Notes under the pieces: generated by a model
Databases searched by the model: none
What the model saw: only the letters and a program-made list of their open reading frames with translations
Told to the model about the DNA's origin: nothing
Part shown: in pieces, positions 19,801-37,474 of the stretch
Layout: every line of letters begins with the position of its first letter
Position numbering within the stretch: position 1 is the stretch's first letter
Position numbers and translations under genes: made by a program
From: an uncultured Candidatus Saccharibacteria bacterium
GTDB taxonomy: Bacteria; Patescibacteriota; Saccharimonadia; Saccharimonadales; Saccharimonadaceae
Direction: 5' to 3'
Length of the DNA stretch: 64,000 bases
NCBI GenBank assembly: GCA_964538665.1
Contig: CAZIEB010000001.1
Coordinates: 7,031-71,030 of the forward strand

Positions 19801-22800
19801 CTATACAGATCGGCGCGGATGATAGAATTAGTGTTCGAAGATCCACTTAATCCGCCGACTAGGTAGACCTGTCCTCGAAATGTAACTGGGCTGGCTGCAG
19901 CAAGACCAGTAGGGAGTACATTTGAGTTAAAGCACCAAGCACCTCCCTGGTATGAGCCCCCCGGGCACGTTGTCGGGCGAATAATTGAACCATCGGTGTC
20001 AATCGCGGAGTATACTACGTCATTACTCGTTGAGCTGCAGGAATTGTTGGTACAGCCTCCGACGATATAAAGATGTCCATTATATATGAAGCTACTAGTC
20101 AGCATATTTCCAACATAAGTTGTTCCTGGTAGATTGCATTGCTCAGGGTCAGATCCCCAACATGGGGTTGATGAATTATTAGCATACGTTTCACCTACGG
20201 TACTGGCATCTCCGTCGCGGTTGATTTTACCGTATCTAATAGCGTCCAGAGTTGCTTCTCCACAATCGCCAGTAGACCCGTTTTGTGACACGCATCCACC
20301 TACTCTATATAGGTGTCCGCGCCAAGATATCAGATTACCCCCGAGCCGTTCATCGAGTGCTGTACCGACAGTATTCCACGTATCCAGGCTGCCATCTGCA
20401 TTTATACTTGCCAGCTGGATGCTACTATGTACCCCTGTACAATATCCGCTTCCATTAACCGCGCTACAGCCGCTACTGATATATAAATAAGCTCCCCATA
20501 CTGCCGCCATAGTACCGCCGCCGGTAAACCTACCAGAAGGCAGAGGGGTAGTCGATATCCAGTTGTTGAGAGATCCATCTGCATTGATTTTGTTGTAATA
20601 GCTAGCAGTTTGCGGTGCTCCGCCGACGCTGTTCGAACCTCCCAGCACATATATTCGATCGTTGTAGATTGCTGCACCGTGTCCATATACATTTGATGGC
20701 AGGGCAGTAGATGATGCCCAAGAACCAAGTGTACCGGTTGGACGAATATCTGCTATTTGAACTGAAGAAACTGGCCCAGACGAAGACCGACCACCTATTA
20801 GGTAGAGCCTATTATTGTATGCTGTTGCGGTAAAATCCGATCGGACTGATGTGAGGTTACTATCTTGATACCAATAAACCCAAGTATTTGGGTCGGTGTT
20901 TGTTGGGTGCCAGAGACGGGGTTCACCGTTTGCGCCGATTTTGGCGATGTAAACTGTGCTTTGCAACGTACCGCTCGCATTTGCGCCACCGATTGCATAC
21001 AAATAGCCGTTGTACGCAACGAGGGAGAAATTAGAACGCTCGGACGGAAGTGCATAATCGCTCGACGAGCACCATCCCGCACACGTTCCTGAGCCAGGAT
21101 TCGCACTTTGTACAGCACCAGTTGTCGTGTTAAATTCTGCCCAACTGACATTTTTCGTGATTTCGGTGCCTGATCCATAAGAAATAAAAATTGCTCCATT
21201 TGCGCCAAAAGAGCCACCTTGGCCACTTGCACCACCTCCACCACCATCACCAGCTCCACTTCGTATCGGGTCGGAGGCATTTCCTGGACTAGTGCCACTT
21301 CCCGCACTATTAGTGACGCTAGAGAGGCCTCCTGCAGTGTAGCTTGATCCACCACCACCACCACCACCTGATGAGTTGGTCGTACTAGATGTCGCACCTC
21401 CACCTCCACCACCGTAGTAGCCGGCTCCACCACCACCACCAGCCGCTCGTGTGGCGTTGACGTTTCCAAGGCCGCCATTTCCTCCGCCTATCAATCCGCC
21501 AAAACCACCACCACCATCTGCACCGGACGAGGCACTTCGACCATCGGCACCCAGACCACCCGTTAATGATGATCCTGACGTACCGGAGTTGTTACCACCT
21601 TGTCCACCACTACCGCCACTGGACTGGGTGCCAGGCCCACCACCGTCACCGTTGTTATTGTATTCAGTATCACCAATAACACCTGTCGTGCCACCACCAG
21701 CTCCACCATCTGCACCAGTTCGGGCAGAGCGTGCACCACCTCCTCCTCCACCACCAGCAGCAATTACAAGGGGCGTACTGCCTCGATAAATACTTGAAAT
21801 TCCACCACCACCACCACCACTACCTGTAGTTGTAGTATTATTTCCACCACCTCCACCACCACCGACATAGATGTCTAATGGTTCACCCGGAGTTACTGGG
21901 ATAACCGCTGTGACATAACCTCCACCTCCACCGTTTCCGCCTGATGCGCCTGATCCACCACCACCTCCACCTCCTCCGGGTCCCCAAACCTTTACGGTGA
22001 TGCTGGTGACACCTGCGGGAACAACAAACGTCTCTGCTCCCTGGGTGTTAAATGCTTGCCCTTGAAACGATCGTCCACCAGCTGAGTAGATATATCCTCC
22101 GGCTGCGGCAACCCCGTTTGCAGACGTTGCTACTGGTAGCGATTGTGTATTCTCCCACTGGTCAAAACGTGCACCGGTGGTAGGTGCTTTTTGGATAAGT
22201 TTTTCATCAACATTGAAGTCAATATTGGTTTCATTGTTCCCGGCCATGAACTCACGCGCACTGGTAACATAAATACTTGGGTCAATCGATAGAGGGAATG
22301 ACGCTTTGCTCAGCCCCGTTGTCACTATCGATAGTTTATTACCGTTCAACTCAAATTTTGAGCGGGCGTACTCTGATTCTTGGCCATTAGACTCAACGAC
22401 TATCGGGCTTGGTATCTTGAACATGAGATCTGTTTTTTGAGCATTCTGACGCATTTTTTCCAGAAGTTTGGCATCTTCATCTGAAGATGCGACAATATTA
22501 CTACTTGTAACGGTGTTGCCATATATTCCTATCCCGCCATCTTTTTCTAACCGAGCTTCTAGTGTATTTCCAATATCTAATACATAGGTAAATGTGGCGG
22601 TGTCTGATTTTGAACTATTCAACAGAATATCTTCTTTTATGCCCGTACTCTGGATTGTATATACCGCCCATCCATCAGAGTCTTTTAGTGGATATACTAT
22701 ACGATTTTCATCCTTTCGCCCGATAAGGTACGCATCAGATGCTTTTAAGGTTAGGTCTACGTTATATACTTTGTCGGATAAGGTAAAACCATCACTAAGC

Positions 22801-23126
22801 TTTGTATTAAACGAGGCTTTAATACCTTGTTGCATTCCATTGACGTCATCAGGAGATTCGTAAGCAAAGGTTTTTGCCTGTTCGTCATATTTGAGTTTAT
22901 TAGCAACCGTTTGGTTAGTTGCAGGTATTAGTGAGGCCGCATTGCCCAGGTCATAAGGTGCTGGCTTGATTAATGGAGTTAAAAAATAGGCTAGATCAGC
23001 AATAATAAGTATCAGTACCAGTAATATACTGTTGATTCTTCGTAAGCGAGTACTAAAAAAAGTGGCACGAGCTGAACTGAGTATACTTTTAATAGTCGGC
23101 AAAACGCGTCGAAAGAAATCTCTCAT
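16890..23126 (-). CDS. Giant (2078 aa) membrane-anchored surface protein: glycine-rich domain, about 17 Kelch-like blades and C-terminal beta-rich domains
   Basis: Uninterrupted 6.2-kb ORF. N-terminal TM ILLVLILIIADLAYFL. Gly-rich block begins FVVPAGVTSITVKVWGPGGGGGGGG. Repeated motifs of the type YNGYLYAIGG, YNNRLYLIGG, YNDRIYVLGG, WNNRLYIVGG and so on. Confidence 0.85.
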   Translation of the reverse strand: MRDFFRRVLPTIKSILSSARATFFSTRLRRINSILLVLILIIADLAYFLTPLIKPAPYDLGNAASLIPATNQTVANKLKYDEQAKTFAYESPDDVNGMQQGIKASFNTKLSDGFTLSDKVYNVDLTLKASDAYLIGRKDENRIVYPLKDSDGWAVYTIQSTGIKEDILLNSSKSDTATFTYVLDIGNTLEARLEKDGGIGIYGNTVTSSNIVASSDEDAKLLEKMRQNAQKTDLMFKIPSPIVVESNGQESEYARSKFELNGNKLSIVTTGLSKASFPLSIDPSIYVTSAREFMAGNNETNIDFNVDEKLIQKAPTTGARFDQWENTQSLPVATSANGVAAAGGYIYSAGGRSFQGQAFNTQGAETFVVPAGVTSITVKVWGPGGGGGGGGSGASGGNGGGGGYVTAVIPVTPGEPLDIYVGGGGGGGNNTTTTGSGGGGGGISSIYRGSTPLVIAAGGGGGGGARSARTGADGGAGGGTTGVIGDTEYNNNGDGGGPGTQSSGGSGGQGGNNSGTSGSSLTGGLGADGRSASSGADGGGGFGGLIGGGNGGLGNVNATRAAGGGGGAGYYGGGGGGATSSTTNSSGGGGGGGSSYTAGGLSSVTNSAGSGTSPGNASDPIRSGAGDGGGGGASGQGGSFGANGAIFISYGSGTEITKNVSWAEFNTTTGAVQSANPGSGTCAGWCSSSDYALPSERSNFSLVAYNGYLYAIGGANASGTLQSTVYIAKIGANGEPRLWHPTNTDPNTWVYWYQDSNLTSVRSDFTATAYNNRLYLIGGRSSSGPVSSVQIADIRPTGTLGSWASSTALPSNVYGHGAAIYNDRIYVLGGSNSVGGAPQTASYYNKINADGSLNNWISTTPLPSGRFTGGGTMAAVWGAYLYISSGCSAVNGSGYCTGVHSSIQLASINADGSLDTWNTVGTALDERLGGNLISWRGHLYRVGGCVSQNGSTGDCGEATLDAIRYGKINRDGDASTVGETYANNSSTPCWGSDPEQCNLPGTTYVGNMLTSSFIYNGHLYIVGGCTNNSCSSTSNDVVYSAIDTDGSIIRPTTCPGGSYQGGAWCFNSNVLPTGLAAASPVTFRGQVYLVGGLSGSSNTNSIIRADLYSDGSASGWTSQSLTGIGATNVSYSYAYARANPAAIDSTPGNLYIFGGCTSSSSAGCTAYTQNVFKCNIALDGAVSSCSTSNQQQVGTVPGATGTGIGIMSGTVYANYIYLIGGVAPGLVDMKTVRYAKFDNNNNVVAVSGSGWIESPNQMQVGRRRTAAFGYNGYIYVAGGFEAGGSGVVADIEFIKVNVSDGSLGSVSEGFTMSDVKINQRWGLTVTVSNSFAYVIGGCTIGDSPGGCTTRTDTIQTFQIYNNVSGAPAEYSGAANSYTTNPNRIGAGNVVHNGRIYVAGGCVSTRDCTNAVNTVSYAQIDVNGNIGSWSNTSAGLPADRAWGKLLSAGGSLYYVGGHSDNANDRRAEIYYATPNGSGDVSSWATATNGLPNARSKFGAASWNNRLYIVGGEGTAGSCSSGICSNVYVSPQLNSGGNISSSWTTSSPNINVGRSGLAVTAYGNNLYLFGGYDGTYYHSDSQYAQINSTDGSVGSWTYSTSLPRPVAFAEAFGSNGYMYLVGGRSSNVTCTPTTFVAPISANTTIASGNNPTGIGAWYEANQKYAGDRYGAGALYYDGKAYIVGGGCSTTTTPSVSSITTTNSGTGFTSDSTTHNVSMPSTTVAGDLLLMLFSYDSNGNPSVTDPDGAGGWTELISQNSATNGGYGSVWAKVATGSDGTTVNFATSNAQRAAAQVYRIPKDQWYGDIDDGIEVAVGTGSTSATRAMPTVSAPWGATDSLWIAYVAGSMYTGVSSYPTDYSNGTHANVDSGTNGASVSSARRTLTTVSETPGNFTMSNSQSGIGFTIAIRPPLPIVTYTGANEIQQSALISQPQIARYSMLMDTDTDVYPNAWLMNGIDNSVGANWQLRYRSMTNPTTYCTSPPMTTWGQETFFGNVSLGVPGVYTPKNAAGTNTNCARYFFFYVSVDSSQAYGYPDDVTRGPTIDSLSLQFTGDPSKRLMHGRTFTGGLQQPIDTPYYSQ
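18200..21050 (-). repeat. Array of about 17 Kelch-like beta-propeller blades (coding; approximate bounds)
   Basis: Recurrent (Y/W/F)-x-(G/N)-x-(L/I/V)-Y-(L/I/V/A)-(I/V/F)-G-G every 50-60 residues, often followed by ...DGS...W. Confidence 0.7.
21150..22010 (-). repeat. Glycine-rich low-complexity coding region with (CCA)n/(GGT)n microsatellites (approximate bounds)
   Basis: The plus strand shows runs such as ccaccaccaccaccaccacc at 21349-21368 and 21802-21820. The translation is poly-Gly interspersed with S/N/T/A. Confidence 0.8.
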
Positions 23127-23135
23127 GCTTTCATT

Positions 23136-26100
23136 TTACCTGTTACTGAAGATAAAGTTCAAGTTACCTATATATGCGTTCGAGTTTTGGCTTGCAGTAA
23201 CATTAATTCGAAACACAATACTGTTGCCTGGAGCAAAGCCACAGGTTGAAGGATCAGCCGTTCCGGTGGCTAAACCTGTTTGCCACGACGCCACGGCACC
23301 TGAAGATACCTGTACGAGCGGACCGCAGGTTGTTAGGCCTGAGGCTTGATCATTTTTATACACCTGGTATTCCACGGTTGAGTTAGCACTGTCTGTCAGC
23401 CCCATAATGGAAGTGGTACCTGATTCGAAGGTCTTAAAGGTTGCTGGTAATTGATAGGTAACATACACGCTATATGTTTGAGCGCTTGGTTGAGGGGATG
23501 ACCAACGATAAAAATTGTAGGTTTCATTTGTACCGCATACGTCAGGTTGGCCAGATGTGCCGTCATTTATATTTAACGTATCTGAACAAAGATCCGAGAC
23601 CATTGTTCCTATACCGGTGCCATGTAGCACCGCGTTTGTAAATTCTGGTGCAATAGTTACGACGGTATTTGGACTTGAGCCACAGGCTCCCCAACCATCT
23701 GCCTCATAGCACTGTAACTTACCAAGCGTCGTATCATAATACATCGAGCCTAATAGTGCATCGTTGTTTATAGCAATCGGAGCAGATGCTGCTTTGTCTA
23801 GTGTGAGCAGTGTAGTAGGGCCACCATTCTCTCCACCCCCGATTTGTACGTTCGGAGCGGTGTTGGTGGTTAAGGTCATCGTGAATGCATCGACATTGAA
23901 CGTACGGGCTGCCGAAGCTTCTCCAACAAAATATACATGGGGATTAGTTGCAACCGTGGCATCTGTTTGTATAAAACAAGTTACTTTCGTCCACTGAGAT
24001 GTTGATATTGATCTGGTGTTGTAGTCGACGCAGTCAATATAGTTGCCTCCCGCCGTCGTACTGCCATCTCGAGAATAGCGGATCTTAAAGTCATTGAATG
24101 TGCCTGATGCTACCTTAGCGTAGGCGGTGATACGATACAGCGTGCTAGGCAGCGGGTTCAAAGATAGTTTATTACGAATACCAGCGTTTGCCGCACCTGC
24201 AGAAATTGAAACTCTGGCGCTATCACTTGCATCTTCACCATCGGTAGTACTACGAGTGACAGAGCCTGTCCCTAACCCTGCGTAGAGCCAGTTGGTTGCG
24301 AAGTTATCACCATCTAAGACGCTACCGTCCGTCGCGTAATTAAAATCTGCGGCTATCGTAATACTGAGATTATCAATAAAGAATGTACGAGCTGTGCCTG
24401 CAGACGCTTGTCGTATCATCAATGAGTTATTTGCAGTAATTCCACCTGAAGGTGCTGTGAATGAACAATTTATCTTTGTCCATATGCTCGTTATAGCTGC
24501 CTTAGCAGTTGCGCATTGGGCATTTGCACTTGTTCCGTCAGCTGAATAGTAGACTTCCATATCGGTAAACGTGCCTGATGCCAAACGAGTCGTGAATGAC
24601 ACATTGTACATCATGTTAGGGGATAACTGCGCTTTTAAGCGGTTCGCTACGCCACTATTGATAGAAGTAGATGTAGCAACCGATACCGATCCTTGACCTG
24701 TTGCGATAAAGTTACCAGGGGTCGTGTATCGAGTTACCGATGCACCTGATAAAGCCGACCATGTATTAGCTGGGAACGTGGTTGATGAAGTCCCCGCCGT
24801 TTCTGCGCCGCCGTTTGAAACATACTCCGTAACATTACTATTGACAGAGAGCAAGCCGGCTGCGGAGGAGCTTTGTACGCTCAATAAAGTCCCGTTAACC
24901 GGATCGATAGAACTGTCACGGATAGTCAGACCGTTGGTTGCAGAGGTTTTACTAACGACTAATTCGGCCCCACCAGCACTCTGCAACGTGTTGTCGTAGG
25001 CCGCTTGTAATGTCGTAGAGCTAGAAGCGCCTGATACGGTCCATGCCGATCCATTCCAGACCATCGTGGCGCTACTGTTTTTGCGCATCGCAACAAGATT
25101 TCCTTGTCCACCGCCATTGATTGACAGCTGGAAGTCCTTCGTGGCGTTTGATGCAGTGATATAGACAATTCGTCCTGCTGTAGTGATAGTCGGGTTTGGC
25201 ATAAACGCTGTTTGACCATCATTGGTAAAGCCTACAATTACTGAACCGTTGTTGTTGACCGAGCTTTGTTGAATAGTACAGTTGCTTGTAGTTGTGGTCT
25301 CGGCGCCCCCCGGGAAACAACTCGCATCATTACCAATGGTCTGATAGGCAGCAGTTCCCAATATGACAAGTCCGTTTGATACATTACCTGAGCCTCCAGA
25401 AAGTGTTAGATTACCACCATATTGAGCGCTACCCCCTGCGTTACCACCTTGTACGCTCACATTACCGCCGTTGCCGGTACCATTGCCTGATGCGCCTTGA
25501 ATACTAAGGGCACTACCTTGAGTGTCTGCGCTCGTTTGCGAGGCAGCTTGTAGCGTTGTAGGACTGCTAGCAACTCCGAGCGTTATTTGTGTGGCGCTGA
25601 GGACTAATGAAGCGCTCCCACTTGAGTTGCCTATTGTAACGCCGGTTGCATTTGTTAATCCTATACTAAGGTTTGCACCAGTAGCCGTGTCAATAACTGG
25701 TGTGAGCAAGCCGCTATCAACTCGTGCAGTGCCGCCAATCCAAAAGTTCGCCGCGGTTTGGACGCTTGCGTTTTGATTTTGGATGAAGTCTCCAGCTGTT
25801 TTTCCGCCTAGTTGTAGCGCATTCATCGCGTAAGGCACAGCAGACAATCGTTTCATCGGGACCATTTCACCATCGCCGCCACAGCTACTAAACGGCGTAC
25901 AGCTGACATTGGTATTCCCGATATTCATGCTGAGCCAAAGGGTGTCTTGGTTCCAGTCAATACTGCTGCCAAATGCAGTGACCGAACCAAGTTCGACGGA
26001 CATAAATCCATTGCGCACTAACACGCCCTGAGAGGCGGAATTTATATGATCTTCGGTCCATAGGAGGGTGCCGCCTGGGTTGCCAACGGCGGTACCGGTG

Positions 26101-26315
26101 CCATCTTGGTATATCTTAAATTGGACATTGTAATAACCGTCTGGAACAGTAGCACCAGACGCAGTAAATAGCCGCCCTTGAAAATTGATCGTTTGATTTA
26201 TTCCAGGAGCAGCAGATGATGTCGTAGACCATACGCCACTTAGAGCAACACTACTCATAACGAGCAGTACTACGATAGCAGAGAATAGACGCCGTGGTGA
26301 CACGCCCGAGAACAT
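23136..26315 (-). CDS. Secreted 1059-aa surface protein: tail-fibre-like N-terminal module, Gly/Ser/Thr-rich beta region and two CBM4/9-like jelly-roll modules
   Basis: Signal peptide ...VALSGVWSTTSSAAPG. INFQGRLFTASGATVPDGYYNVQFKIYQDG...LLWTE...NGFMSVELG resembles the N-termini of tail-fibre-domain proteins. Two roughly 150-aa modules end FFIDNLSITIA and FNVDAFTMTL. Confidence 0.75.
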   Translation of the reverse strand: MFSGVSPRRLFSAIVVLLVMSSVALSGVWSTTSSAAPGINQTINFQGRLFTASGATVPDGYYNVQFKIYQDGTGTAVGNPGGTLLWTEDHINSASQGVLVRNGFMSVELGSVTAFGSSIDWNQDTLWLSMNIGNTNVSCTPFSSCGGDGEMVPMKRLSAVPYAMNALQLGGKTAGDFIQNQNASVQTAANFWIGGTARVDSGLLTPVIDTATGANLSIGLTNATGVTIGNSSGSASLVLSATQITLGVASSPTTLQAASQTSADTQGSALSIQGASGNGTGNGGNVSVQGGNAGGSAQYGGNLTLSGGSGNVSNGLVILGTAAYQTIGNDASCFPGGAETTTTSNCTIQQSSVNNNGSVIVGFTNDGQTAFMPNPTITTAGRIVYITASNATKDFQLSINGGGQGNLVAMRKNSSATMVWNGSAWTVSGASSSTTLQAAYDNTLQSAGGAELVVSKTSATNGLTIRDSSIDPVNGTLLSVQSSSAAGLLSVNSNVTEYVSNGGAETAGTSSTTFPANTWSALSGASVTRYTTPGNFIATGQGSVSVATSTSINSGVANRLKAQLSPNMMYNVSFTTRLASGTFTDMEVYYSADGTSANAQCATAKAAITSIWTKINCSFTAPSGGITANNSLMIRQASAGTARTFFIDNLSITIAADFNYATDGSVLDGDNFATNWLYAGLGTGSVTRSTTDGEDASDSARVSISAGAANAGIRNKLSLNPLPSTLYRITAYAKVASGTFNDFKIRYSRDGSTTAGGNYIDCVDYNTRSISTSQWTKVTCFIQTDATVATNPHVYFVGEASAARTFNVDAFTMTLTTNTAPNVQIGGGENGGPTTLLTLDKAASAPIAINNDALLGSMYYDTTLGKLQCYEADGWGACGSSPNTVVTIAPEFTNAVLHGTGIGTMVSDLCSDTLNINDGTSGQPDVCGTNETYNFYRWSSPQPSAQTYSVYVTYQLPATFKTFESGTTSIMGLTDSANSTVEYQVYKNDQASGLTTCGPLVQVSSGAVASWQTGLATGTADPSTCGFAPGNSIVFRINVTASQNSNAYIGNLNFIFSNR

Positions 26316-26485: not shown

Positions 26486-27445
26486 TTAGGTGACGAGTTG
26501 CCCGCGAACTCGGAGTATGTGTTTTTCGCGTTTTTCACCAAGCCAAAAACTTATCACCGCTGTGATAATCGCCGCATAGAGTGGCCATATGACGAGTAGG
26601 ATATGTCGCTGTGTCGTGGTGCTCTCAGCGACCGCAGCATCTGGTTGGCCATTGACGATGGCTGCGACCGTCATGAACGCGACTCGTCCATCAGCATCAC
26701 TCGCTTGGATAGTTATCTGGTATATGCCAGGTTTTTTATACGTGTGCGGTACCGAAAATCCAATATTATCACCGCGTGAGACGACAGAGTTTTCTGAGTC
26801 TCCCCACTGTACATTGACGGCATACGGTGGACGGCCGCCGATGAGATCAATCCGTAGAAGCATTTCTTGATCAGGAAACATGCCTCGATATACTGCGTCG
26901 GTATTGATAAGGAGTTGTGCTGCGCCGAAATCAAACGATGCGATAGGCCCGGCTTGCGTTGGAAGTGCGTCATAAAAGACGGTGACGATGTTTGAGTCTG
27001 GGCCTGGTTGATTGAGCGCATCATAGACGCGCGCGATGAGCCTATTCTCGCCGATAAGTAAGTCTATCTGCACTGAGTATGTACCGGTGCTACTACACGG
27101 AGTCGAGCCGGCAAAAATGTCATTTTTGAATATTTCAACTAGAGTATTTGGTGGACACGTACCCGTGACCTCTATCGGGGTTTCGATAAATCGCTGCCCA
27201 GTCGTCGGCGTGACGATAGTTGCGCCCGTCGTCGGTGGTTTTCCCGGCACAACTCCGGTGAGACCGACAGAGCCTGATTCTGGCCCATCGTATGGCGTCG
27301 CCGCACGGGTGACAGAATTGATAGTAAACATGACTAATACCACACCTATAACTGTAAGGATGATGCCTAGCATCCGGTAGGGTATCTGCTTTTGAGGTGT
27401 GTGTGTGTTTGTATGGCGTGGATGCAACGATTTGCGAGCCATCAT
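26486..27445 (-). CDS. Membrane protein with Ig-like and PKD-like domains
   Basis: N-terminal TM, then an Ig-like region. PKD-like PYAVNVQWGDSENS...HTYKKPGIYQITIQASDADG, then a C-terminal TM. Confidence 0.6.
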   Translation of the reverse strand: MMARKSLHPRHTNTHTPQKQIPYRMLGIILTVIGVVLVMFTINSVTRAATPYDGPESGSVGLTGVVPGKPPTTGATIVTPTTGQRFIETPIEVTGTCPPNTLVEIFKNDIFAGSTPCSSTGTYSVQIDLLIGENRLIARVYDALNQPGPDSNIVTVFYDALPTQAGPIASFDFGAAQLLINTDAVYRGMFPDQEMLLRIDLIGGRPPYAVNVQWGDSENSVVSRGDNIGFSVPHTYKKPGIYQITIQASDADGRVAFMTVAAIVNGQPDAAVAESTTTQRHILLVIWPLYAAIITAVISFWLGEKREKHILRVRGQLVT

Positions 27446-27473: not shown

Positions 27474-28472
27474 TTAGCGACGACGCCGGCCACGGCTCTG
27501 GCTGAGCAAGCGATCATTGTATCGCTTGATAGCAATTCTCAGGATAAAGAAGAGTGCGACGAGGCCGAGGAGTATGCCGGCAATTAGCTTATACGGGATG
27601 ACCCAAAAACTTAGCTGTGAGGTCATTGTTTGACGGTTTTCGGCTGAGCCATAGGTAATTTCGAGATCGGCTGTGTAGCGACCAAATAACATTCGATTGC
27701 CAATTACGGTTTCATCGAGAGGTTGCTCGAATTTACGTGTGCTTCCAGGAAGAACATTACGGTTTTCGAGGTTGACATTGAGATTGGCTATCTTTTGGCC
27801 AAACATGTCTTTGATGCTGATTTGACCTCGTGGCTGTTCGTGTACATTACCCTCATTCTTGAGTCGCTCATAGAACATGATTGGAGCTGATTCGAATACC
27901 CACGAGCGGTTCTGGTCTTTTTCGACATAGAATTCCTCCACACTCATTGCTTCTTTGGCGTCTCCGTTGACCCTCAAAAGTACCAAAGTACCAAGACTTG
28001 CAGAGAGCGAAACACCAGTGCCGGATAGCTCAGGCGCTTCGGCAGTAAAGCGAATTACGCCGAAGTAACCGCCCGGTGCAGCGTTCGCCGGGATAGCGAT
28101 ATTAACAGTCAATTCTTCAATCTGACGAGGTTCTAGGGTGATTTCAGGTAGTGGCGAAATCCAGCTTTTGATAGAGTAGGGACTCTCTTCACCTTCCTCA
28201 ACCAAGATCTTAGGCGTGCCATCTTCTCCGGCAGCGACAAAGTCATTGATTTCATTTCGGACCAACAATCGCACCGGACTAATGTCACGTAGGCTAATTC
28301 GAGCTTCTACAGTCTCTCCAGGATTACCGCGTATGTCGAGTACTGGCGGTGCAATTTCAAGTGCTTGTCCGTTTCCTTGCTGAGGAGCTGATTGGCTCTG
28401 TGCAGAGACTGCAACGCTAGCGAGAGCCAGGAGTGCGATGCTACTAATCAAAATTCCGAGTATCTGCTTCAT
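27474..28472 (-). CDS. DUF916/DUF3324-like two-domain cell-surface protein with a C-terminal TM anchor
   Basis: Signal peptide, then two Ig-like-sized beta domains (…PGETVEARISLRD…; …IPANAAPGGYFGVIRF…), a C-terminal TM and an RGRRRR tail. The architecture resembles CscA-type proteins of WxL loci. It sits 3 nt downstream of the preceding paralog. Confidence 0.45.
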   Translation of the reverse strand: MKQILGILISSIALLALASVAVSAQSQSAPQQGNGQALEIAPPVLDIRGNPGETVEARISLRDISPVRLLVRNEINDFVAAGEDGTPKILVEEGEESPYSIKSWISPLPEITLEPRQIEELTVNIAIPANAAPGGYFGVIRFTAEAPELSGTGVSLSASLGTLVLLRVNGDAKEAMSVEEFYVEKDQNRSWVFESAPIMFYERLKNEGNVHEQPRGQISIKDMFGQKIANLNVNLENRNVLPGSTRKFEQPLDETVIGNRMLFGRYTADLEITYGSAENRQTMTSQLSFWVIPYKLIAGILLGLVALFFILRIAIKRYNDRLLSQSRGRRRR

Positions 28473-28475
28473 ATG

Positions 28476-29606
28476 CTAAAACAAGGCGGTACAGATGTAC
28501 GTTAGCGTGGTGGTATACGTACCAGGGGGCTGAACACCAGACACATTGACGATATATGAGGCGGTATAAATCTGTGAGTTAGTAGGTCCAGGGCTTGTGC
28601 CAACAGTACCAAGTGCGCCACCGGAGCTGGCGCTGTTGGCGACGGTCTCACCACTAACAAATTTGAACTGATCAACGGTCTGATAGCCTGTATTGGCTTG
28701 TGCTTTGAGGTCGGTACCATTTGACGCGGGCGACACCTCGGCACCAAAGGCCGGCGTTGAAGTCGCAACAGTGTTTGCACGAAGATTCATGCCGAACTCG
28801 CTTGTTCCGGGCGAGCCAGCGGCTTGTGTGGCCTTTGCGGGTATAGTGTTGCTTCCACTAGTCAGTGCGGGCCCGTTGACCGAAATTGTATAGCCTCTCT
28901 CAGCATTGGTGCTCGCAGCCATCTGAGATGTGGCAACGGCAGTATCTGTTGGCGAGAATAGTCGGTCGAACTCTATCGCTCCGGGCGTACTACTCGTACA
29001 GTTTGCGGCAACGGTCTCTCCTGTACAAAATATCAATGATTCTGGCATAACTCCACTGAGCACAATTTGCTCAGCGGTGCTAGCGGCGACGGTACCGTTG
29101 TCTACTGCACCTGTTGCACCATCTGTGCCTGTATAGGTGGTAATACGTACATAAAATGACTCATTGACAGTAGTTGGGTTTGTGACACCGAGTAGTTGGT
29201 AGGACAGTGCTGCTCCTGCTGTCACGCTGGCAGCGGTACGAGTGATGTACGGAGATCCGTTTGTGGTGTTGTTGAGCGTAAATCCAGTTGCACCAGACTG
29301 TGTACCCATAGTCGCGCTCGTTGTGACGAGGCCAGTCGGTGTCGTACATGTGCCTCCAGCTTCAGTACAGTATTCAAACCGTATCGATCCGATATTGCCG
29401 TTACCGACATTTGGGACAGTAAATTCATAGAAGTGGTTGACGTTACCACCGGCGAGTGAGCCGCCGTCGCCGCCCGCACCCTGCTGTAGCGTCAGTGAAC
29501 GAAGTGTTATTTGAGCAGCGGTCGCATTTCGCGACAGCATCAATGGGCTTGCTACCATCAAGAATAGCAGCAAAGCTGATAGGAACACCCTTCCACTTCG
29601 TCTCAT
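28476..29606 (-). CDS. Secreted beta-rich two-domain surface protein, paralog A2 (WxL-like C-terminal domain with Y in place of W)
   Basis: Signal peptide ...SRNATAAQ. Highly similar to 29861..31009. C-terminal domain motifs RGYTISVNGPALTSGSNTI and GTYTTTLTYICTALF. Confidence 0.7.
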   Translation of the reverse strand: MRRSGRVFLSALLLFLMVASPLMLSRNATAAQITLRSLTLQQGAGGDGGSLAGGNVNHFYEFTVPNVGNGNIGSIRFEYCTEAGGTCTTPTGLVTTSATMGTQSGATGFTLNNTTNGSPYITRTAASVTAGAALSYQLLGVTNPTTVNESFYVRITTYTGTDGATGAVDNGTVAASTAEQIVLSGVMPESLIFCTGETVAANCTSSTPGAIEFDRLFSPTDTAVATSQMAASTNAERGYTISVNGPALTSGSNTIPAKATQAAGSPGTSEFGMNLRANTVATSTPAFGAEVSPASNGTDLKAQANTGYQTVDQFKFVSGETVANSASSGGALGTVGTSPGPTNSQIYTASYIVNVSGVQPPGTYTTTLTYICTALF

Positions 29607-29613
29607 ACCTGTG

Positions 29614-29643
29614 ATTGTAGCATGAGCTTTTTAGGGGCGTCAA
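29614..29643 (-). promoter_or_regulatory. Promoter of paralog A2 (leaderless-type)
   Basis: Minus strand: TTGACG, 18 nt, TACAAT (within GCTCATGCTACAAT), then 7 nt to ATG 29606. Confidence 0.55.
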
Positions 29644-29860
29644 CAAATAATCCTCGCAGAAAGTACCATTTGCGCGATCAGTGAGTGTATCTGCGGTAAT
29701 TGATATAGCTTTAGAAGTCTAGTGTGATGCGGTCATGCTCAACTAAAAAGTCCTCCTCTCGGGTGTGTAGTATGGTTCGCAACACCGCCAGATACTGTCA
29801 GTGAAGACAGTATGTATGGCAGGTGTGTGGTGGATAACTTTCTATACATAGTAGAGTGAA

Positions 29861-31009
29861 TCAGAATGTTGCGGTACAGATGTATGTCAGTGTCGAGGTG
29901 TAGGTACCGGCAGGTTGGCTACCTGGGACATTTGCGATGTAGGCGACAGTAAATATCTGTGCGTCACTTGGACCGGCTGCGGTATTATCACTCGCGGCTA
30001 CAGTGTCACCCGACGTAAACTTATATTGCTCAGGTGTATCATAGCCAGTTGATGCCTGTCCGCGGTAGTTTGTGCCGTTCGGCGCAGGTGCTACTTCAAG
30101 GCCTACTGTAGGAGTAGTGATGTTTGCTTTGAGGTTGAGACCAAACTGTGCGGTACCAGGAACTGATATGCCGGCGGTATTCATACCAGCGATAGTGTTA
30201 GATCCTGAGGTGAGGGTTGGTCCGTTGACCGTGATGGCATAGCCCGCCCCCGCGTTGGTACTTGCAGCCATTTGGGATTGTGATATCGCAGTTGCCGTTG
30301 GCGAAAACAGCTGGTTGAAAGCGATAGTACCATCAGTTGCCGTCGAACAGTCAGGGACAGTACTTGTCGCGATATCGAGGCCAATTGTTTCGCCTGTGCA
30401 GAAGACGAGCGATTCGGGCATGACTCCGCTAAGGATGATAGGTTCGGCAGTGCTTGCGGCTACCGTACCGTTATCTTGAGGAATACCAGTGGCGGTTGTG
30501 TTTGCGTAGGTTAATATACGTACGAAGAAAGTCTTATTGGTATCGGGAACAGTTGGGCCATAGACTGGGTTGGTGATGCCGAGCAATTGATACGAGACCG
30601 CGCCTGATGCTGCGGCAGCCGTGCGAGTAAGATAAGGAGCACCGTTTGTTGTGGCATTGAGAGTAAAACCAGTTGCACCAGATTGAGTTCCCATTGTGGC
30701 GCTGGTCGTTACAAGTCCTGTTGGAGTAACACACGTCCCTAACCCGACGTCAGCTGCTGTTTCACAGTATTCAAACTTTATTGAACCGACTGTATTCGCG
30801 GGTAGGGTAAAGTTGAATAGGTGGTTAACGACGCCTCCAGGCTCTGATCCGCCGTCAGTGGCACCTGCTTGAAGAGTCAGGCTACGATTCGTAATTTGCG
30901 CGGCCGAGACCGGTGTATTCAGGAAAAATGGGCTAGCCGCCACTAATAATGCAAGCGCAACAAGCGACAAGCGCGAAACGATACGGTGAAATGTTTGTGG
31001 TGTTTTCAT
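29861..31009 (-). CDS. Secreted beta-rich two-domain surface protein, paralog A1
   Basis: Signal peptide ...NTPVSAAQ. Shares a 24-aa identical block TPTGLVTTSATMGTQSGATGFTLN with A2. The C-terminus is GTYTSTLTYICTATF. Confidence 0.7.
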   Translation of the reverse strand: MKTPQTFHRIVSRLSLVALALLVAASPFFLNTPVSAAQITNRSLTLQAGATDGGSEPGGVVNHLFNFTLPANTVGSIKFEYCETAADVGLGTCVTPTGLVTTSATMGTQSGATGFTLNATTNGAPYLTRTAAAASGAVSYQLLGITNPVYGPTVPDTNKTFFVRILTYANTTATGIPQDNGTVAASTAEPIILSGVMPESLVFCTGETIGLDIATSTVPDCSTATDGTIAFNQLFSPTATAISQSQMAASTNAGAGYAITVNGPTLTSGSNTIAGMNTAGISVPGTAQFGLNLKANITTPTVGLEVAPAPNGTNYRGQASTGYDTPEQYKFTSGDTVAASDNTAAGPSDAQIFTVAYIANVPGSQPAGTYTSTLTYICTATF

Positions 31010-31047
31010 GTGGTGGTTGTGTTTATTTTTTGAGGTGCTTTAGCCAC

Positions 31048-31077
31048 ACTGTAGCATGAGCATTTTGGCCATGTCAA
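31048..31077 (-). promoter_or_regulatory. Promoter of paralog A1
   Basis: Minus strand: TTGACA, 18 nt, TACAGT (within GCTCATGCTACAGT). The leader is about 30 nt with no SD. Confidence 0.55.
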
Positions 31078-31115
31078 CAATAATATGTATGAAAACTGTG
31101 GATAAGTCGTACTAT

Positions 31116-31847
31116 TCAGTATGTACCGGTCACGATAAGTGTTTGGTTGCTGCTGTATATCCCTCCCGGGGTGAGCTGTGCAACGTTAGCTATGTAGCTG
31201 ATAGTGTAGGTCGTCTGTCCAGAATTTTTATCGGCATAAGCGATAGTCTCACCGCTGACGTAGCGAAATTCGTTTGGTGTAGCATAGTTTGGTGCAATCA
31301 AGCCAAAGCCAAAATCACCGTTATTGAGATTTGAACCGAAAGATACCGGGACAGTATTTGCCACGAGGTTGATACCAAACTGTTCGACGCCAACTTGCGG
31401 TGTGGTGGTCGCGGACATTGCATCAATTGTCGAATTACTATTTGTGAGCGATGACCCTACCAGTTGGACTACATAGCCATATGTCGTGTAGTTTGAAACA
31501 CGAAACGATGCGGTCGCGGTAAGGGTGCTTGTTGGGCTAAAGGTTCCGAAATTTGCTGCACTCGTCAAGACCTCGAATGATAGGGCTGGATCAGGTGACG
31601 TATTGGTACCTGAATCAAGTTGGAAGTTTGCGCTCTGGGAGTTTCCGATTGCGATGTCACCTGTCGCGCCACGTGCCTCAAAATTTGAAGAGCTAGACTG
31701 CAGCATCCCACCAGTGCCTATGACCCCTTCATCAAACCGGTAATTGGGTGACTGTAATGACTGCGCAAACAGAGGAATAGGGAAGAATAATGCCCCGATG
31801 ACAGCTATTACACTCAAAACAATGACAAAACTCCGTGCCATAAGCAT
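31116..31847 (-). CDS. Shorter paralog (C-terminal domain type) of the A1/A2 surface proteins
   Basis: Signal peptide ...PIPLFAQS. YGYVVQLVGSSLTNSNSTI, EQFGINLVANT and the C-terminus GGIYSSNQTLIVTGTY parallel A1/A2. The start could be ATG 31847, ATG 31841 or TTG 31877. Confidence 0.6.
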   Translation of the reverse strand: MLMARSFVIVLSVIAVIGALFFPIPLFAQSLQSPNYRFDEGVIGTGGMLQSSSSNFEARGATGDIAIGNSQSANFQLDSGTNTSPDPALSFEVLTSAANFGTFSPTSTLTATASFRVSNYTTYGYVVQLVGSSLTNSNSTIDAMSATTTPQVGVEQFGINLVANTVPVSFGSNLNNGDFGFGLIAPNYATPNEFRYVSGETIAYADKNSGQTTYTISYIANVAQLTPGGIYSSNQTLIVTGTY

Positions 31848-31933
31848 TATTGTCACGTGTTGGCCGTCATTTTGCAAGTTGCGGTATCAGTACATAAGCG
31901 GTATAGTTACTATGGATACAATAAGACAAACAT

Positions 31934-32938
31934 ATGGATAGCACACAAAGTTCGGGGCCAAAACCCGAAGAACTCAAACCAGTAGAGGCGCCGGCGTCAC
32001 AGTCGGCTGCGCCGTCAATGAAGTCTGGCTATAAGTCTCGTCGAATTGCCTATCGTCCGACAAAACGAGCGACGTTTATCGGTATTGCGGTGATAATCGG
32101 TCTATTGGTCGCGCTCAGTGTTGGATTGTTCTTCCTCGTCAGGGGGCAGGGTGGTTTGCAGTCAGCGTTGTTTGGGGATCAAGTAGTGATAGACCCGGGG
32201 AGTCTCGAGTCACTAGGCGTGAGCCGCAATCAAGTCAGTACTCAAGGCGCTGAACTAATCATTGGGCCAAGTACTCGTTTCAATGGAAAAGTACAGTTGG
32301 GCGGTGACGTCAGCGTGGCGGGACAACTCCAGCTCAACAACGCACTGTCGGCCAGCTCGGCCAATCTCGGCAACGTCCAGGCTGCAAATGTATCGCTGGG
32401 GCAATTTACTGCCAGCGGCAATGGTACGGTCGGGACACTAAATGCTCGTCAGGACCTCAATGTTGCTGGTACGACTCGATTGCAGGGACCGGTTGCGATT
32501 GGTCAGCTGTTGACGGTAAACAACAACTTAAACGTTGCGGGCAACGTTGCGGTCGGTGGCACGCTCAGTGTGCGGAATTTTCAGGCCAGTAGCTTGACGT
32601 CTGATACGACATTGACAATAGGTGGTCACGTGATTACTCGAGGCGCTGCACCGGGTGTAAGCGCTGGTGGTGCAGTTGGTAGCAATGGGACCGTATCGAT
32701 CAGCGGCAATGATGCATCGGGTACGGTTGCGGTAAACACAGGCACTGGTGCGGGCAATGGTATCGTGGCGCAGGTGTCATTCACGCGTGCGTACTCATCA
32801 ACTCCACATGTTGTGATTACGCCTGTTGGCATTGGCGTAAAGTTTTTTGTCAATCGTAGCCCCAGCGGTTTTTCGATTGGGGTCAGTGAAGGTATGCCGC
32901 CAGGCGGGTTTGCCTTTGACTACATCGTCATGCAGTAG
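31934..32938 (+). CDS. Membrane-anchored protein with a beta-helix-like repeat region and an H-type-lectin-like C-terminus
   Basis: Cytoplasmic basic N-terminus and one TM. Repeats of the type G(D/N)V(S/A)V(A/G)G.L.V. The C-terminus is VAQVSFTRAYSSTPHVVITPVG...NRSPSGFSIGV...FDYIVMQ. Confidence 0.5.
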   Translation: MDSTQSSGPKPEELKPVEAPASQSAAPSMKSGYKSRRIAYRPTKRATFIGIAVIIGLLVALSVGLFFLVRGQGGLQSALFGDQVVIDPGSLESLGVSRNQVSTQGAELIIGPSTRFNGKVQLGGDVSVAGQLQLNNALSASSANLGNVQAANVSLGQFTASGNGTVGTLNARQDLNVAGTTRLQGPVAIGQLLTVNNNLNVAGNVAVGGTLSVRNFQASSLTSDTTLTIGGHVITRGAAPGVSAGGAVGSNGTVSISGNDASGTVAVNTGTGAGNGIVAQVSFTRAYSSTPHVVITPVGIGVKFFVNRSPSGFSIGVSEGMPPGGFAFDYIVMQ

Positions 32939-35490
<2,552 letters not shown>

Positions 35491-35491
<1 letters not shown>

Positions 35492-36993
35492 TATTTCTTC
35501 TCCTTGGCATCAGTCTTTGCGTCGTCTTGGGCGGGTGGCGGTGATGTTTTATCAGCTTCTTTACGGACAGCCGCAAGCGGCGCTGCAGCAAATTGCGACA
35601 GTAGTTCAGCTTCGATTGCATCATAATCTGATTCTTGCGTAACGCGGCCAGCAGCCTCGCGAACGGCTTTTTTGAGACCGACAACGTCTATAGGCCGATC
35701 ATCCTGACTCGACATAATCGTCTCGAGCATGAGCTGCTGCTCAACGAGTGAATGGAGTTCTTCGGGTGGTTGCTGCAGGGCCATGTAGAGATGCTTGCCG
35801 CGGGCTAGATCGAGTCGAGCTTCTTTGCTGAGCTGGCTGGAAAAGTGAGAGAATTCTTCGGCTTGGTGGTATTTTGCGAGTGATTTGAAAAGAGCAGTCG
35901 ATAGTTGCTTTTGACGTTTGTTTTGGGCTTGACCACCGACGCGTGACACCGACAAACCGGCGTTGACGGCTGGACGAACACCTTTGCGGAAAAAACCAAG
36001 ATCGAAGATGATCTGCCCGTCTGTAATCGACATGATGTTGGTCGAAAGATATGCCGTAATATCGTCGTTTGGCGTTAGGACGACCGGGAGGCTTGTCAGT
36101 GTCTTGTCATTCGAGAGTAGTCGCCCAGCTCGCTCTAATAGGCTTGAATGGGTGTAGAAAATATCACCAGGGTAGCTATCTCGGCCTGGGTCTACTTCCT
36201 GAAGCAGTGATAATTGTCGATAGGCTTCAGCGTGTGAGCTGAGATCGTCATAAATGATAATGACATCTCGGCCGCTGTACCATAGGTTTTCCGCCATGGC
36301 GCAGGCTGCATAGGGCGCAAGGTAGCTCTGCGTCAGTGAATCGAAGATGTTGGCAAAGACAACGATAGTGCTTTTCATCGCGCCTGATGATTTGAGGCCG
36401 GCAAGCAATCGTTCGACATCAACTTTACGTTTGCCGATAAGTACGTATACGACGAGTCGGTCTGTCTCTTGTTGGTTTGCGCTTAGCTGAGACAAAAATG
36501 TACTTTTTCCTGATTTGCTATCACCAAGAATTGCGATACGTTGCCCAAGGACTATCGGGAAGAAACTATCGACTGCAGTCACGCCGCTTTCGAGCTGCTG
36601 GTCGAGCACTTTTCTGTCCATAATGCCCGGTGCGGCTGAAAAAATGCCAGATGACTGTGCGGTTTGGACAGGCCCGGCGCCATCAAGCGGTGTCCCCATT
36701 GGGCTAATCACGCGTCCGACAAGTTCGGGACCGACCGGTACTTGGAGCATGTCGTGCTGCACCACGGCGAGCGTGCCGATTGGCAAAATTTCAGAGTCGA
36801 TATTGTACAGAATGACTTTGTCGCCGTAGGTCTCACGTACGATACCTCGTTGGCCATCTTCGAACAACACTTGCGCTCCGATTTTTACGCCATGGAGGCC
36901 TTTGACCTCAACAATAAATCGATTGACCGCAACGACTTGGCCTGTCAGATTGTCAGACTCAACCAACGACTGGAACTGTGCGGTATCAAACAC
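35491..36993 (-). CDS. atpA: F1 ATPase alpha subunit (divergent) with a Lys/Ala/Pro-rich C-terminal tail
   Basis: GDSKSGKST P-loop, IIIYDDLSSHAEAYRQLSLL and PGDIFYTHSSLLERAG. Preferred start is GTG 36993 (GGAGG 9 nt upstream, overlapping the atpH stop). The track start is TTG 37011. Confidence 0.85.
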
Positions 36994-37474
36994 GACGAAG
37001 TACCTCCGCAAACTCGTAGCGGTTTGTCAGCAGTGCACGTCGAAACGACCAGTCGTATACATGACTACCGTAGCGTATGACCATGCCGCCAAGCAGTGTT
37101 GCGTTGAAGCGAAAATCTATCAATGTTGCATCGTGTAGCTCTTTTCGGCACCATTTTGCAATTGTTTGTTGCAGTTGGCGTGAGGGCGGGGCGGCGAGCG
37201 TGACGGTCATAGTCGGGGAAGTCTGCCTGAGACTCCGGACATCTTGGAGCAGTTGATCAAGGATTTGGAAACTCAAACGGTTGTTCTCGGCGACCTGCTG
37301 CAATAGAGAAATTGCCGTTTGGCTGAGGCCGGGCATCATCGTGCCTTTTGACAAATGAAGCTCTTGTTTGATCGCATTATGACGAAACCAGTCACCGTAG
37401 GACATCAGCTCCATTTCGAGCTCAGCAATATCGCGCGGAGAGATGATTGTTGCTGGCAGTACGAGTTTAGCCAT
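36986..37474 (-). CDS. atpH: ATPase delta (OSCP) subunit
   Basis: Start ATG 37474 overlaps the atpF stop (ATGGCTAA). The C-terminal LIDFRFNATLLGGMVIRYGSHVYDWSFRRAL matches the delta pattern ...GG..v..g....D.S....L. Confidence 0.7.
   Translation of the reverse strand: MAKLVLPATIISPRDIAELEMELMSYGDWFRHNAIKQELHLSKGTMMPGLSQTAISLLQQVAENNRLSFQILDQLLQDVRSLRQTSPTMTVTLAAPPSRQLQQTIAKWCRKELHDATLIDFRFNATLLGGMVIRYGSHVYDWSFRRALLTNRYEFAEVLRRV

Follow-up and report, generated by a model that had tools for sequence, protein, structure and literature searches.

Three paralogous secreted proteins followed at once by a membrane-anchored partner raise the question of which surface system a member of the Saccharibacteria builds from them. 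This is the arrangement found on the minus strand of the stretch of DNA analysed here (the window: 64,000 nucleotides of an uncultured Candidatus Saccharibacteria bacterium, positions 7,031 to 71,030 of contig CAZIEB010000001.1, assembly GCA_964538665.1). An interpretation made from the letters alone, hereafter the sequence-only reading, had proposed a surface complex of the WxL type known from Firmicutes. We are confident that the locus is instead a pam operon, the pilus system specific to the candidate phyla radiation (CPR) and first described in Ca. Mycosynbacter amalyticus (M. amalyticus), carried here by a Saccharimonadia genome in a compact copy that contains PamT, two PamB-sized pilins, one chaperone and PamR. 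The system itself is already known, since it is described by the Pam pilus preprint (Troman et al., bioRxiv 2026, 10.64898/2026.03.03.709456) and by the NCBIfam models NF058578, NF058579 and NF058581, and the earlier statement that nothing like it had been described for CPR bacteria is out of date. What is new relative to the preprint, as judged from profile comparisons and a structure model, is that a relationship can be detected between the chaperone of the window and the DUF916/WxLIP proteins that belong to the WxL surface clusters of Gram-positive bacteria. The genes of the operon are listed below.

31116..31877, minus strand: PamT, putative tip subunit; 253 residues from a TTG start; its single domain is a Pam pilin C-domain, preceded by a signal peptide and a short N-terminal extension, without N-terminal domain or linker.
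29861..31009, minus strand: shaft pilin 1, PamB-sized; 382 residues, mature form ~34.8 kDa, with a signal peptide, a 9-strand N-terminal beta-sandwich, a conserved linker and a C-terminal Pam pilin domain.
28476..29606, minus strand: shaft pilin 2, PamB-sized; 376 residues, mature form ~34.7 kDa, with the architecture of pilin 1.
27474..28472, minus strand: membrane-anchored chaperone with two immunoglobulin (Ig)-like domains; 332 residues, starting 3 nt after the pilin stop and characterised with AlphaFold, Foldseek and hhalign.
26486..27445, minus strand: PamR, RbmA-like, proposed pilus terminator and anchor; 319 residues, in which two Ig/PKD-like domains lie between an N-terminal signal/anchor segment and a C-terminal transmembrane helix.

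For the identification of the subunits, we scanned the three paralogues against Pfam, which gave no match, and against NCBIfam release 20, which matched all three. PamT passed its equivalog model NF058579 (272.7 bits, E 2.5e-81, profile positions 5-241 of 241; cut-off 240 bits), and PamR passed NF058578 (347.2 bits, E 5.5e-104; cut-off 300) and also matched the PKD family PF00801 at 24.2 bits. The pilin C-domain model NF058581, with its cut-off of 55 bits, scored 151.2 bits in pilin 1 (residues 225-382), 132.8 bits in pilin 2 (residues 209-376) and 149.4 bits (E 7.6e-44) in PamT (residues 105-253). On these extents the shared domain is ~150-170 residues long, shorter than the roughly 190 first estimated. 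The paralogy itself is far beyond chance, with 56% identity between pilin 1 and pilin 2 over their full length (E 1e-130) and 33% identity between PamT and the C-terminal ~170 residues of a long pilin (E 4e-18). The sequence-only reading was also right about the four minus-strand open reading frames and about the motifs that it quoted from them, which are found verbatim (RGYTISVNGPALTSGSNTI, AGYAITVNGPTLTSGSNTI, YGYVVQLVGSSLTNSNSTI, GTYTTTLTYICTALF, GTYTSTLTYICTATF, GGIYSSNQTLIVTGTY and PANAAPGGYFGVIRF). Hidden Markov models (HMMs) built locally for the two pilin domains matched pilin 1 at 1e-61 (N-terminal domain) and 5e-77 (C-terminal domain).

The fold of the pilins points in the same direction. 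The AlphaFold model of the pilin at 28476-29606 (predicted local distance difference test score, pLDDT, of 77) contains nine confident strands at residues 36-176, a linker at residues 180-191 with pLDDT <50, and the C-terminal domain at residues 192-376. This layout, with nine N-terminal strands, a linker that is highly conserved and disordered, and a C-terminal domain, is also that of the published PamA and PamB. According to the preprint, cryo-electron microscopy (cryo-EM) of M. amalyticus at 2.8 and 3.6 A revealed thin filaments made of PamA (55 kDa) and PamB (38.7 kDa), in which each subunit has an N-terminal sandwich of nine strands, joined by one linker strand to a truncated Ig-like C-domain that accepts the linker of its neighbour; these proteins are the 2nd and 9th most abundant in the cell and form long helical filaments by strand exchange (10.64898/2026.03.03.709456). 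As an alternative to a surface complex, a pilus-like fibre built through the conserved C-terminal strand had been suggested for the window. The fibre part of this suggestion agrees with the homologous system, which is a pilus, whereas the strand donated there is the inter-domain linker and not the C-terminal strand. In the window, the corresponding segments are the following.

30401..30439, minus strand: inter-domain linker IILSGVMPESLVF of pilin 1, putative donor strand, from conservation in the family and from the role of the linker in the PamA/PamB cryo-EM structures.
29028..29069, minus strand: linker QIVLSGVMPESLIF of pilin 2, putative donor strand, on the same grounds and from pLDDT <50 at residues 180-191 of the monomer model.

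The linker has the consensus STAtqIvLtGxMPESliFCtGaT, in which G, M, P, E, F, C and G are invariant in 47/47 pilin sequences, and it ranks among the most conserved stretches of the pilin family. The lack of structure in the monomer model is as expected if the strand folds only inside a neighbouring subunit.

Gene content and context lend further support to the identification as a pam operon. Besides the two filament proteins, the M. amalyticus operon is reported to encode PamE, PamT as a tip protein of one domain, PamC and PamD as two PapD/FimC-like chaperones whose C-terminus is a transmembrane helix, and an RbmA-like anchor, PamR, and its neighbourhood includes ATP synthase genes and a central gene for a 'tail fibre-like protein' (10.64898/2026.03.03.709456). 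The model of the window's chaperone, with two Ig domains and a transmembrane helix, resembles the published PamC and PamD, and chaperones of the chaperone-usher class as well as RbmA are among its fold matches. We mapped 60 related loci (given handles beginning with L where they are named below) by tblastn and HMMs. In ~45 Saccharimonadia loci the gene order is kept: it begins with atpAGDC and an oppositely oriented bactofilin-like gene and continues with PamT, 1-5 pilins, the chaperone, PamR, the fibre gene and the giant gene. The preprint reports the same ATP-synthase and tail-fibre context. Many of these loci carry a second, divergent chaperone paralogue upstream, as does M. amalyticus. Homologues are numerous (>2776 for the pilins and >1472 for the chaperone), and every named organism among them belongs to the Saccharibacteria or Saccharimonadales, with nearly all entries that bear a name titled 'hypothetical protein'. 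The N-terminus of PamR, finally, carries a motif that resembles the pilin linker.

Several points weigh against this identification. The Pam structures were not found by sequence in the copy of the PDB that we used, nor among the top Foldseek matches; PDB sequence searches with one pilin, the pilin profile and the chaperone profile returned nothing useful, and the full-length pilin model, when searched with Foldseek, matched only adhesins and pilins of a generic two-Ig kind, including CfaE and CupB6, with TM-scores of ~0.2-0.3 that are uninformative on the C-domain. The chaperone at 27474-28472 has no match among the NCBIfam models. By our local HMM map, the operon of the window lacks a PamA-sized (55 kDa) pilin, PamE, a second chaperone and any further pilin, which prevents a one-to-one transfer of the published order of assembly. 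The label PamB-like is one of size and architecture only, and the strand-donation steps proposed for the window proteins are drawn by analogy with PamA and PamB. Pilins of the window type also have five invariant cysteines, against the three pairs reported for PamB. These cysteines (C80, C87, C194, C203 and C372 in the numbering of the 28476-29606 pilin) occur in 47/47 sequences; exactly five cysteines are present in 42/47 family members, and there are none in PamT or the chaperone. Two residues are candidates for the unpaired cysteine, C372 of the last strand (TLTYIC) and C194, with which the putative donor linker ends (ESLIFC); it may be a free thiol or form a disulfide between subunits.

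One more pam operon in itself adds little, because the structures, the distribution in Saccharimonadia and Microgenomatia and the gene neighbourhood were published in 2026 and the NCBI annotation models recognise the system. The minimal version in the lineage of the window, with one chaperone and two near-equal pilins, shows that the core system can do without PamA, PamE and a second chaperone.

The chaperone is where our results go beyond the published picture. It has the architecture first ascribed to it, with two beta-sandwich domains, a transmembrane helix at its C-terminus and an Arg tail: in the AlphaFold model (pLDDT 84.5) the sandwich domains span residues 38-168 and 176-291 and the transmembrane helix residues 294-329, and the protein ends in this hydrophobic helix followed by RGRRRR. 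When the model was searched with Foldseek, ranks 1-3 were taken by WxLIP chains of E. faecium, namely 9i25_C (E 3.5e-11), 9i1y_A and 9i1y_B (to E 4.3e-10). We confirmed these chains as EfmWxLIP1 and 9i25_C as a DUF916-DUF3324 protein; the entries 9i25 and 9i1y represent WxLIP free and 'bound to long WxL'. The next fold matches were RbmA (4th), CfaA, Caf1M, CsuC, DraB and YadV. The chaperone-usher chaperones among them share the two-domain Ig-like boomerang fold and matched at E 1.4e-8 to 1.8e-6, their TM-scores being 0.40-0.47 when normalised by the target.

Profile comparisons led to the same family. The window protein alone scored 13.5 bits against PF06030 (DUF916/WxLIP_PGBD), below the gathering score of 27.3, and sub-threshold matches to this profile were obtained in 40/45 close chaperone relatives (best E 1.7e-5). 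Distant chaperone homologues match nearly the whole profile, and one of them (L058:850-1905) scored 29.4 bits, above the gathering score. With hhalign, the close-family chaperone profile matched a profile of three WxLIPs at 93% probability (E 3.6e-7, 98 columns, score 56.8), and a broad CPR chaperone profile did so at 96% (E 2.5e-9, 139 columns, score 75.4), while shuffled controls scored 12.6-19.4 and a reversed WxLIP profile 26.4. The same chaperone profiles gave only 1.1-1.5% against E. coli FimC, YadV and SfmC. In addition, when 7.3 Gb of plasmid sequence was searched by tblastn with a CPR chaperone, the hits fell on annotated DUF916/DUF3324 genes. The DUF3324 domain (PF11797, WxLIP_HBD) was not found to any appreciable extent in the second chaperone domain of the 45 members, nor in 10 distant members. 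The proposal of a DUF916/DUF3324-type partner can therefore be kept for its DUF916 half, and its DUF3324 half found no counterpart. PapD_N and PapD_C (PF00345 and PF02753) were not among the Pfam families matched by the 45 members. By sequence, the Pam chaperone belongs with the DUF916/WxLIP proteins and not with the PapD-like chaperones, the relationship being one of remote homology.

The preprint compares the Pam chaperones only with FimC and PapD and makes no mention of WxL, DUF916 or Enterococcus (10.64898/2026.03.03.709456), and our literature search found nothing linking the Pam system with WxL or DUF916. The chaperone-WxLIP link ties a host-attachment fibre of the CPR to a surface system that is widespread among Gram-positive commensals and pathogens but poorly understood, and it suggests a testable mechanism for WxL proteins, in which a tethered chaperone would complement them with a strand. 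The window's chaperone also occurs, in an identical copy, on metagenomic contigs.

We then asked whether the subunits follow the chaperone into the WxL family, as the sequence-only reading had it when it called the three paralogues WxL-like with Trp replaced by Tyr. The WxL profile PF13731 had no match at E up to 1 in the three window paralogues and none at E up to 10 in 47 family members. At the positions proposed for the Trp-x-Leu motifs, the paralogues carry GYxI/GYxV and TYI/TLI, without Trp. As a comparison set, we took genuine WxL clusters from three plasmids, of Vagococcus, E. gilvus and E. faecalis, aligned ten WxL domains and enlarged them to 130 by profile search. In hhalign, the 215-sequence profile of the Pam C-terminal domain matched the 130-sequence WxL profile with a probability of 0.2% and a score of 14.7, at the level of the column-shuffled (8.3-15.3) and reversed (14.4-16.6) controls, and with either the 10- or the 130-sequence profile, under default and permissive settings, the score never rose above such controls. 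Under permissive settings the alignment of the two domains was colinear in the register first proposed, and the WxL HMM gave marginal colinear matches of 8-12 bits on the second half of the C-terminal domain in four pilins; neither result is significant. The short motifs in common (G-aromatic-x-aliphatic-x-V and Y-T-x-T-L-T-aromatic) are of a kind that is usual for edge strands in many Ig-like surface proteins. No WxL chain was present in the Foldseek top 50 for the full-length pilin model, and the neighbours of the chaperone are Pam pilins, so there is no adjoining pair of WxL-domain proteins. Membership of the pilin C-domain in the WxL family is not supported by these comparisons.

The clusters used for comparison (L063-L065) showed some features in their own right. 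In 3/3 a small WxL gene stands directly before the DUF916-DUF3324 gene, a helix-turn-helix regulator lies a few genes later in two, and a class A sortase and an LPXTG protein are each present in one. The Vagococcus cluster has, after its WxLIP gene, a large MucBP gene that encodes a protein with a WxL domain at its end. The order in these clusters, subunits and then an Ig-Ig-transmembrane protein, mirrors that of the pam operon.

The alternative that survives best is one of shared ancestry, in which Pam and WxL/Csc would be two branches of one ancient usher-less monoderm system with a membrane-tethered DUF916-type chaperone, the chaperone corresponding to WxLIP and the pilin C-domain to a diverged WxL domain (Trp -> Tyr). 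We regard it as a tentative possibility, somewhat doubtful as matters stand. The homology of the chaperone, well supported by its first three fold matches, the hhalign probabilities and the PF06030 matches, is in its favour, as are the tblastn hits on DUF916/DUF3324 plasmid genes. The cluster logic is also the same: WxL clusters contain small WxL proteins that consist of the domain only, large WxL proteins with N-terminal domains in front of it, and the Ig-Ig-transmembrane WxLIP (PMC10599100, PMC9772566), which parallels PamT as the subunit with the C-domain only, PamA/PamB as the large subunits and PamC/PamD as the Ig-Ig-transmembrane proteins. AlphaFold moreover predicts a DUF916 strand inserting into WxL (PMC10599100), and the marginal WxL-HMM matches in four pilins fit as well. 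However, the subunit domains lack supported similarity, with PF13731 found in 0/47 sequences, the hhalign score within its controls and no WxL among the top 50 folds; the second chaperone domain has no detectable PF11797; and the shared short motifs are generic. A bridging locus, with a chaperone that passes the DUF916 threshold beside WxL-like or Pam-like subunits, was not found in the most divergent loci (L043-L060). If the common origin were true, the WxL proteins of enterococci, listeriae and lactobacilli might assemble, and possibly polymerise, by donor-strand complementation.

The naming in the preprint suggests another origin, in which Pam would descend directly from Gram-negative chaperone-usher pili through a PapD/FimC-family chaperone that gained a membrane anchor. 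CfaA, Caf1M, CsuC, DraB and YadV are significant fold matches of the chaperone, CfaE and CupB6 appear among those of the pilin, and the donor-strand principle is common to both systems. Nevertheless, WxLIP outranks all of these chaperones in Foldseek, the hhalign probabilities are 1.1-1.5% against 93-96%, the PapD_N and PapD_C families are missing, the Pam C-terminal domain reaches only 0.1% in hhalign against E. coli pilins, and no match to the usher family was obtained among the scanned locus proteins. We consider this descent improbable.

Less probable still, and in our view highly unlikely, is a non-covalent cell-wall complex of the WxL/Csc type without any fibre, in which the paralogues would bind peptidoglycan through their C-domain and be held by the DUF916-like protein: the WxLIP-like partner and the cluster composition parallel WxL clusters, but the homologues form abundant strand-exchange filaments in the published cryo-EM structures, the window proteins pass the curated Pam models with no WxL domain signal, and the highly conserved linker would have no role in a monomeric wall anchor. 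A sortase-type pilus was rejected on the absence of an LPXTG motif and a sortase from the locus, where the C-termini are free beta-strands, and a type IV pilus on the absence of a prepilin-type N-terminus.

Taking the locus as a pam operon, we propose the following course of assembly. All five proteins would be exported by Sec: each has an N-terminal hydrophobic signal-like segment, as claimed for the subunits and their partner at the outset, and an Ala-x-Ala-type site after it. Each pilin would comprise a complete N-terminal beta-sandwich and an incomplete Ig-like C-domain, as seen by cryo-EM in PamA and PamB and as indicated here by the curated HMMs and the AlphaFold model. The tethered two-Ig chaperone would cap the open C-domain with a strand of its own, a step that Troman et al. 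predicted with AlphaFold and that has an analogue in WxLIP-WxL. The predicted donor is the last strand of the first chaperone domain (~residues 156-168, SASLGTLVLLRV) or a hairpin, lying in the groove of the pilin. The linker IVLSGVMPESLIF of the next pilin (residues 180-193) would then enter the same groove and displace the chaperone strand, in a donor-strand exchange as demonstrated for PamA/PamB filaments, and the fibre would grow at its base. PamT probably sits only at the distal tip because it has an acceptor domain but no linker, and PamR would give an N-terminal strand (predicted residues 58-71) to the last pilin and anchor the fibre in the membrane by its C-terminal helix. An usher would be unnecessary because there is no outer membrane. 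The presumed role of the finished fibre is contact with the host bacterium. Only for PamA and PamB of M. amalyticus have filaments and the exchange of strands been demonstrated, and the other steps are predictions, in the preprint (from AlphaFold complexes) as well as here.

The terminating step can be followed into the sequence of PamR, whose position directly after the chaperone is conserved in related loci and for which the role of strand donor was predicted with AlphaFold by Troman et al. (10.64898/2026.03.03.709456). The segment concerned is given here.

27233..27274, minus strand: conserved N-terminal segment GSVGLTGVVPGKPP of mature PamR, similar to the pilin linker, candidate terminating donor strand, from alignment and the linker HMM.

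An alignment of 44 PamR homologues with the window protein has the consensus gs....g.vpG.pP, and the mature protein begins with GS[IV]xL[ST]G[VT][VM]P. In several homologues the pilin linker HMM matches this N-terminus at 5-10 bits, a weak motif that lends small local support to the donor step. The same HMM also matches a second G-x-x-P segment inside the first Ig domain of PamR, and for this reason the motif is too unspecific to count as strong evidence.

Some details of gene starts and signals in the operon were noted alongside. The start of PamT placed at 31847 by the sequence-only reading is an internal ATG ('MLMARSF') of the 31116-31877 open reading frame, and the true start is probably the ATG at 31847 or that at 31841. 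Public gene calls start later than the longest open reading frames (360 instead of 376 residues for the 28476-29606 pilin, 295 instead of 319 for PamR and 241 instead of 253 for PamT), and the longest-frame N-termini of PamR and PamT probably contain untranslated residues ahead of the hydrophobic segment. Promoter-like sites lie on the minus strand at 31048..31077, upstream of pilin 1, and at 29614..29643, upstream of pilin 2; each has 10/12 consensus matches and an extended -10 TG, and each is a consensus match only. They are the best sigma-70-like sites of the 10.5-kb region and occupy both intergenic gaps directly 5' of the full-length pilins, and the major pilin subunits could thus have promoters of their own, judging from the sequence. 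The total count of the promoter and terminator scan of the region was not above that of shuffles.

The neighbouring genes complete the picture. A PKD/Ig membrane protein and two large genes had been described downstream of the chaperone, and these are present as PamR and the first two genes of the following list.

23136..26315, minus strand: fibre-like secreted protein of 1059 residues with carbohydrate-binding modules (CBM_4_9, E 4.1e-7) and a weak Bdello_MAT_N match.
16890..23126, minus strand: giant membrane-anchored protein of 2078 residues, combining an N-terminal membrane segment with a long low-complexity tract rich in Gly and many Kelch beta-propeller repeats.
32939..37011, minus strand: atpA, atpG, atpD and atpC, immediately upstream; synteny by tblastn in L002, L004-L011, L022 and L037.
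31934..32938, plus strand: membrane protein with a bactofilin-like beta-helix, divergent from PamT; PF04519 at E 1.3e-4, below the cut-off.

The weak match of the 1059-residue protein is to the N-terminus of the mosaic adhesive trimer fibres of Bdellovibrio, and a fibre gene follows PamR in most Saccharimonadia loci. The Kelch families were found in the 2078-residue protein at E 4.7e-31 and 3e-27, and its gene is syntenic in L001-L011. The bactofilin-like gene keeps its place in at least 13 related loci (L001-L011, L022, L037) and is not among the Pam components listed in the accessible part of the preprint.

The related loci also include further variants. Shapirobacteria loci have weak Pam pilin and PamT matches beside their chaperones, in line with the distant Microgenomatia homologues of the preprint. 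Eight loci (L017, L045, L047 and L052-L056) are labelled Gammaproteobacteria, Pseudomonadales or Magnetospirillaceae, yet Pam-type chaperones or entire pam operons are found on them; L047 shows colinearity with locus L046 of the Shapirobacteria, and the operons of L045 and L017 resemble those of Saccharimonadia. All these contigs are probably mis-binned or mislabelled CPR. The number of gene copies differs widely between loci: one (L038) contains five tandem pilin paralogues and two chaperones, in two others (L052 and L055) the chaperone occurs as three tandem paralogues without a recognisable pilin, and at L060:9842-11539 an extended chaperone homologue of 565 residues adjoins a protein of 2441 residues.

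Among known systems, one likeness is to RbmA of Vibrio cholerae, whose tandem fibronectin type III/Ig fold matches PamR according to the preprint and is the fourth fold match of our chaperone model; RbmA is a secreted matrix protein, without a transmembrane anchor or a role in pilus assembly. The chaperone-usher pili (Fim/Pap, CFA/I class 5, Csu, Caf1) share with Pam the incomplete Ig-like subunit completed by a donated strand, the two-Ig chaperone, a non-donating tip and a terminator (FimI/PapH corresponding to PamR). They differ in that Pam has neither outer membrane nor usher, tethers its chaperone in the cytoplasmic membrane and uses an internal linker as donor in place of an N-terminal extension; its subunits have an extra N-terminal domain, its fibre is extended and uncoiled, and no relationship at the sequence level was detected. 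The WxL/Csc clusters of Firmicutes (PMC10599100, PMC9772566, PMC1534035; 9i25, 9i1y) resemble Pam in having an Ig-Ig-transmembrane partner that is a remote homologue, the same cluster logic, a monoderm host and a predicted insertion of a partner strand. In contrast to them, the Pam C-domain has no Trp-x-Leu, no PF13731 match and no profile similarity, DUF3324 is undetected and the Pam locus lacks an LPXTG protein and a sortase, and WxL proteins are described as wall-bound complexes whereas Pam is described as fibres. The Pam system of M. amalyticus differs from the operon of the window, which is more compact, in that the latter has two near-equal PamB-sized pilins with five invariant cysteines, no PamA-type pilin or PamE, and one chaperone in place of PamC and PamD, and the two have in common PamT, PamR and the pilin C-domain as recognised by the curated models, the two-domain pilins with their linker, the membrane-anchored two-Ig chaperone, the gene order, the ATP-synthase and fibre context and a host among the Saccharimonadia.

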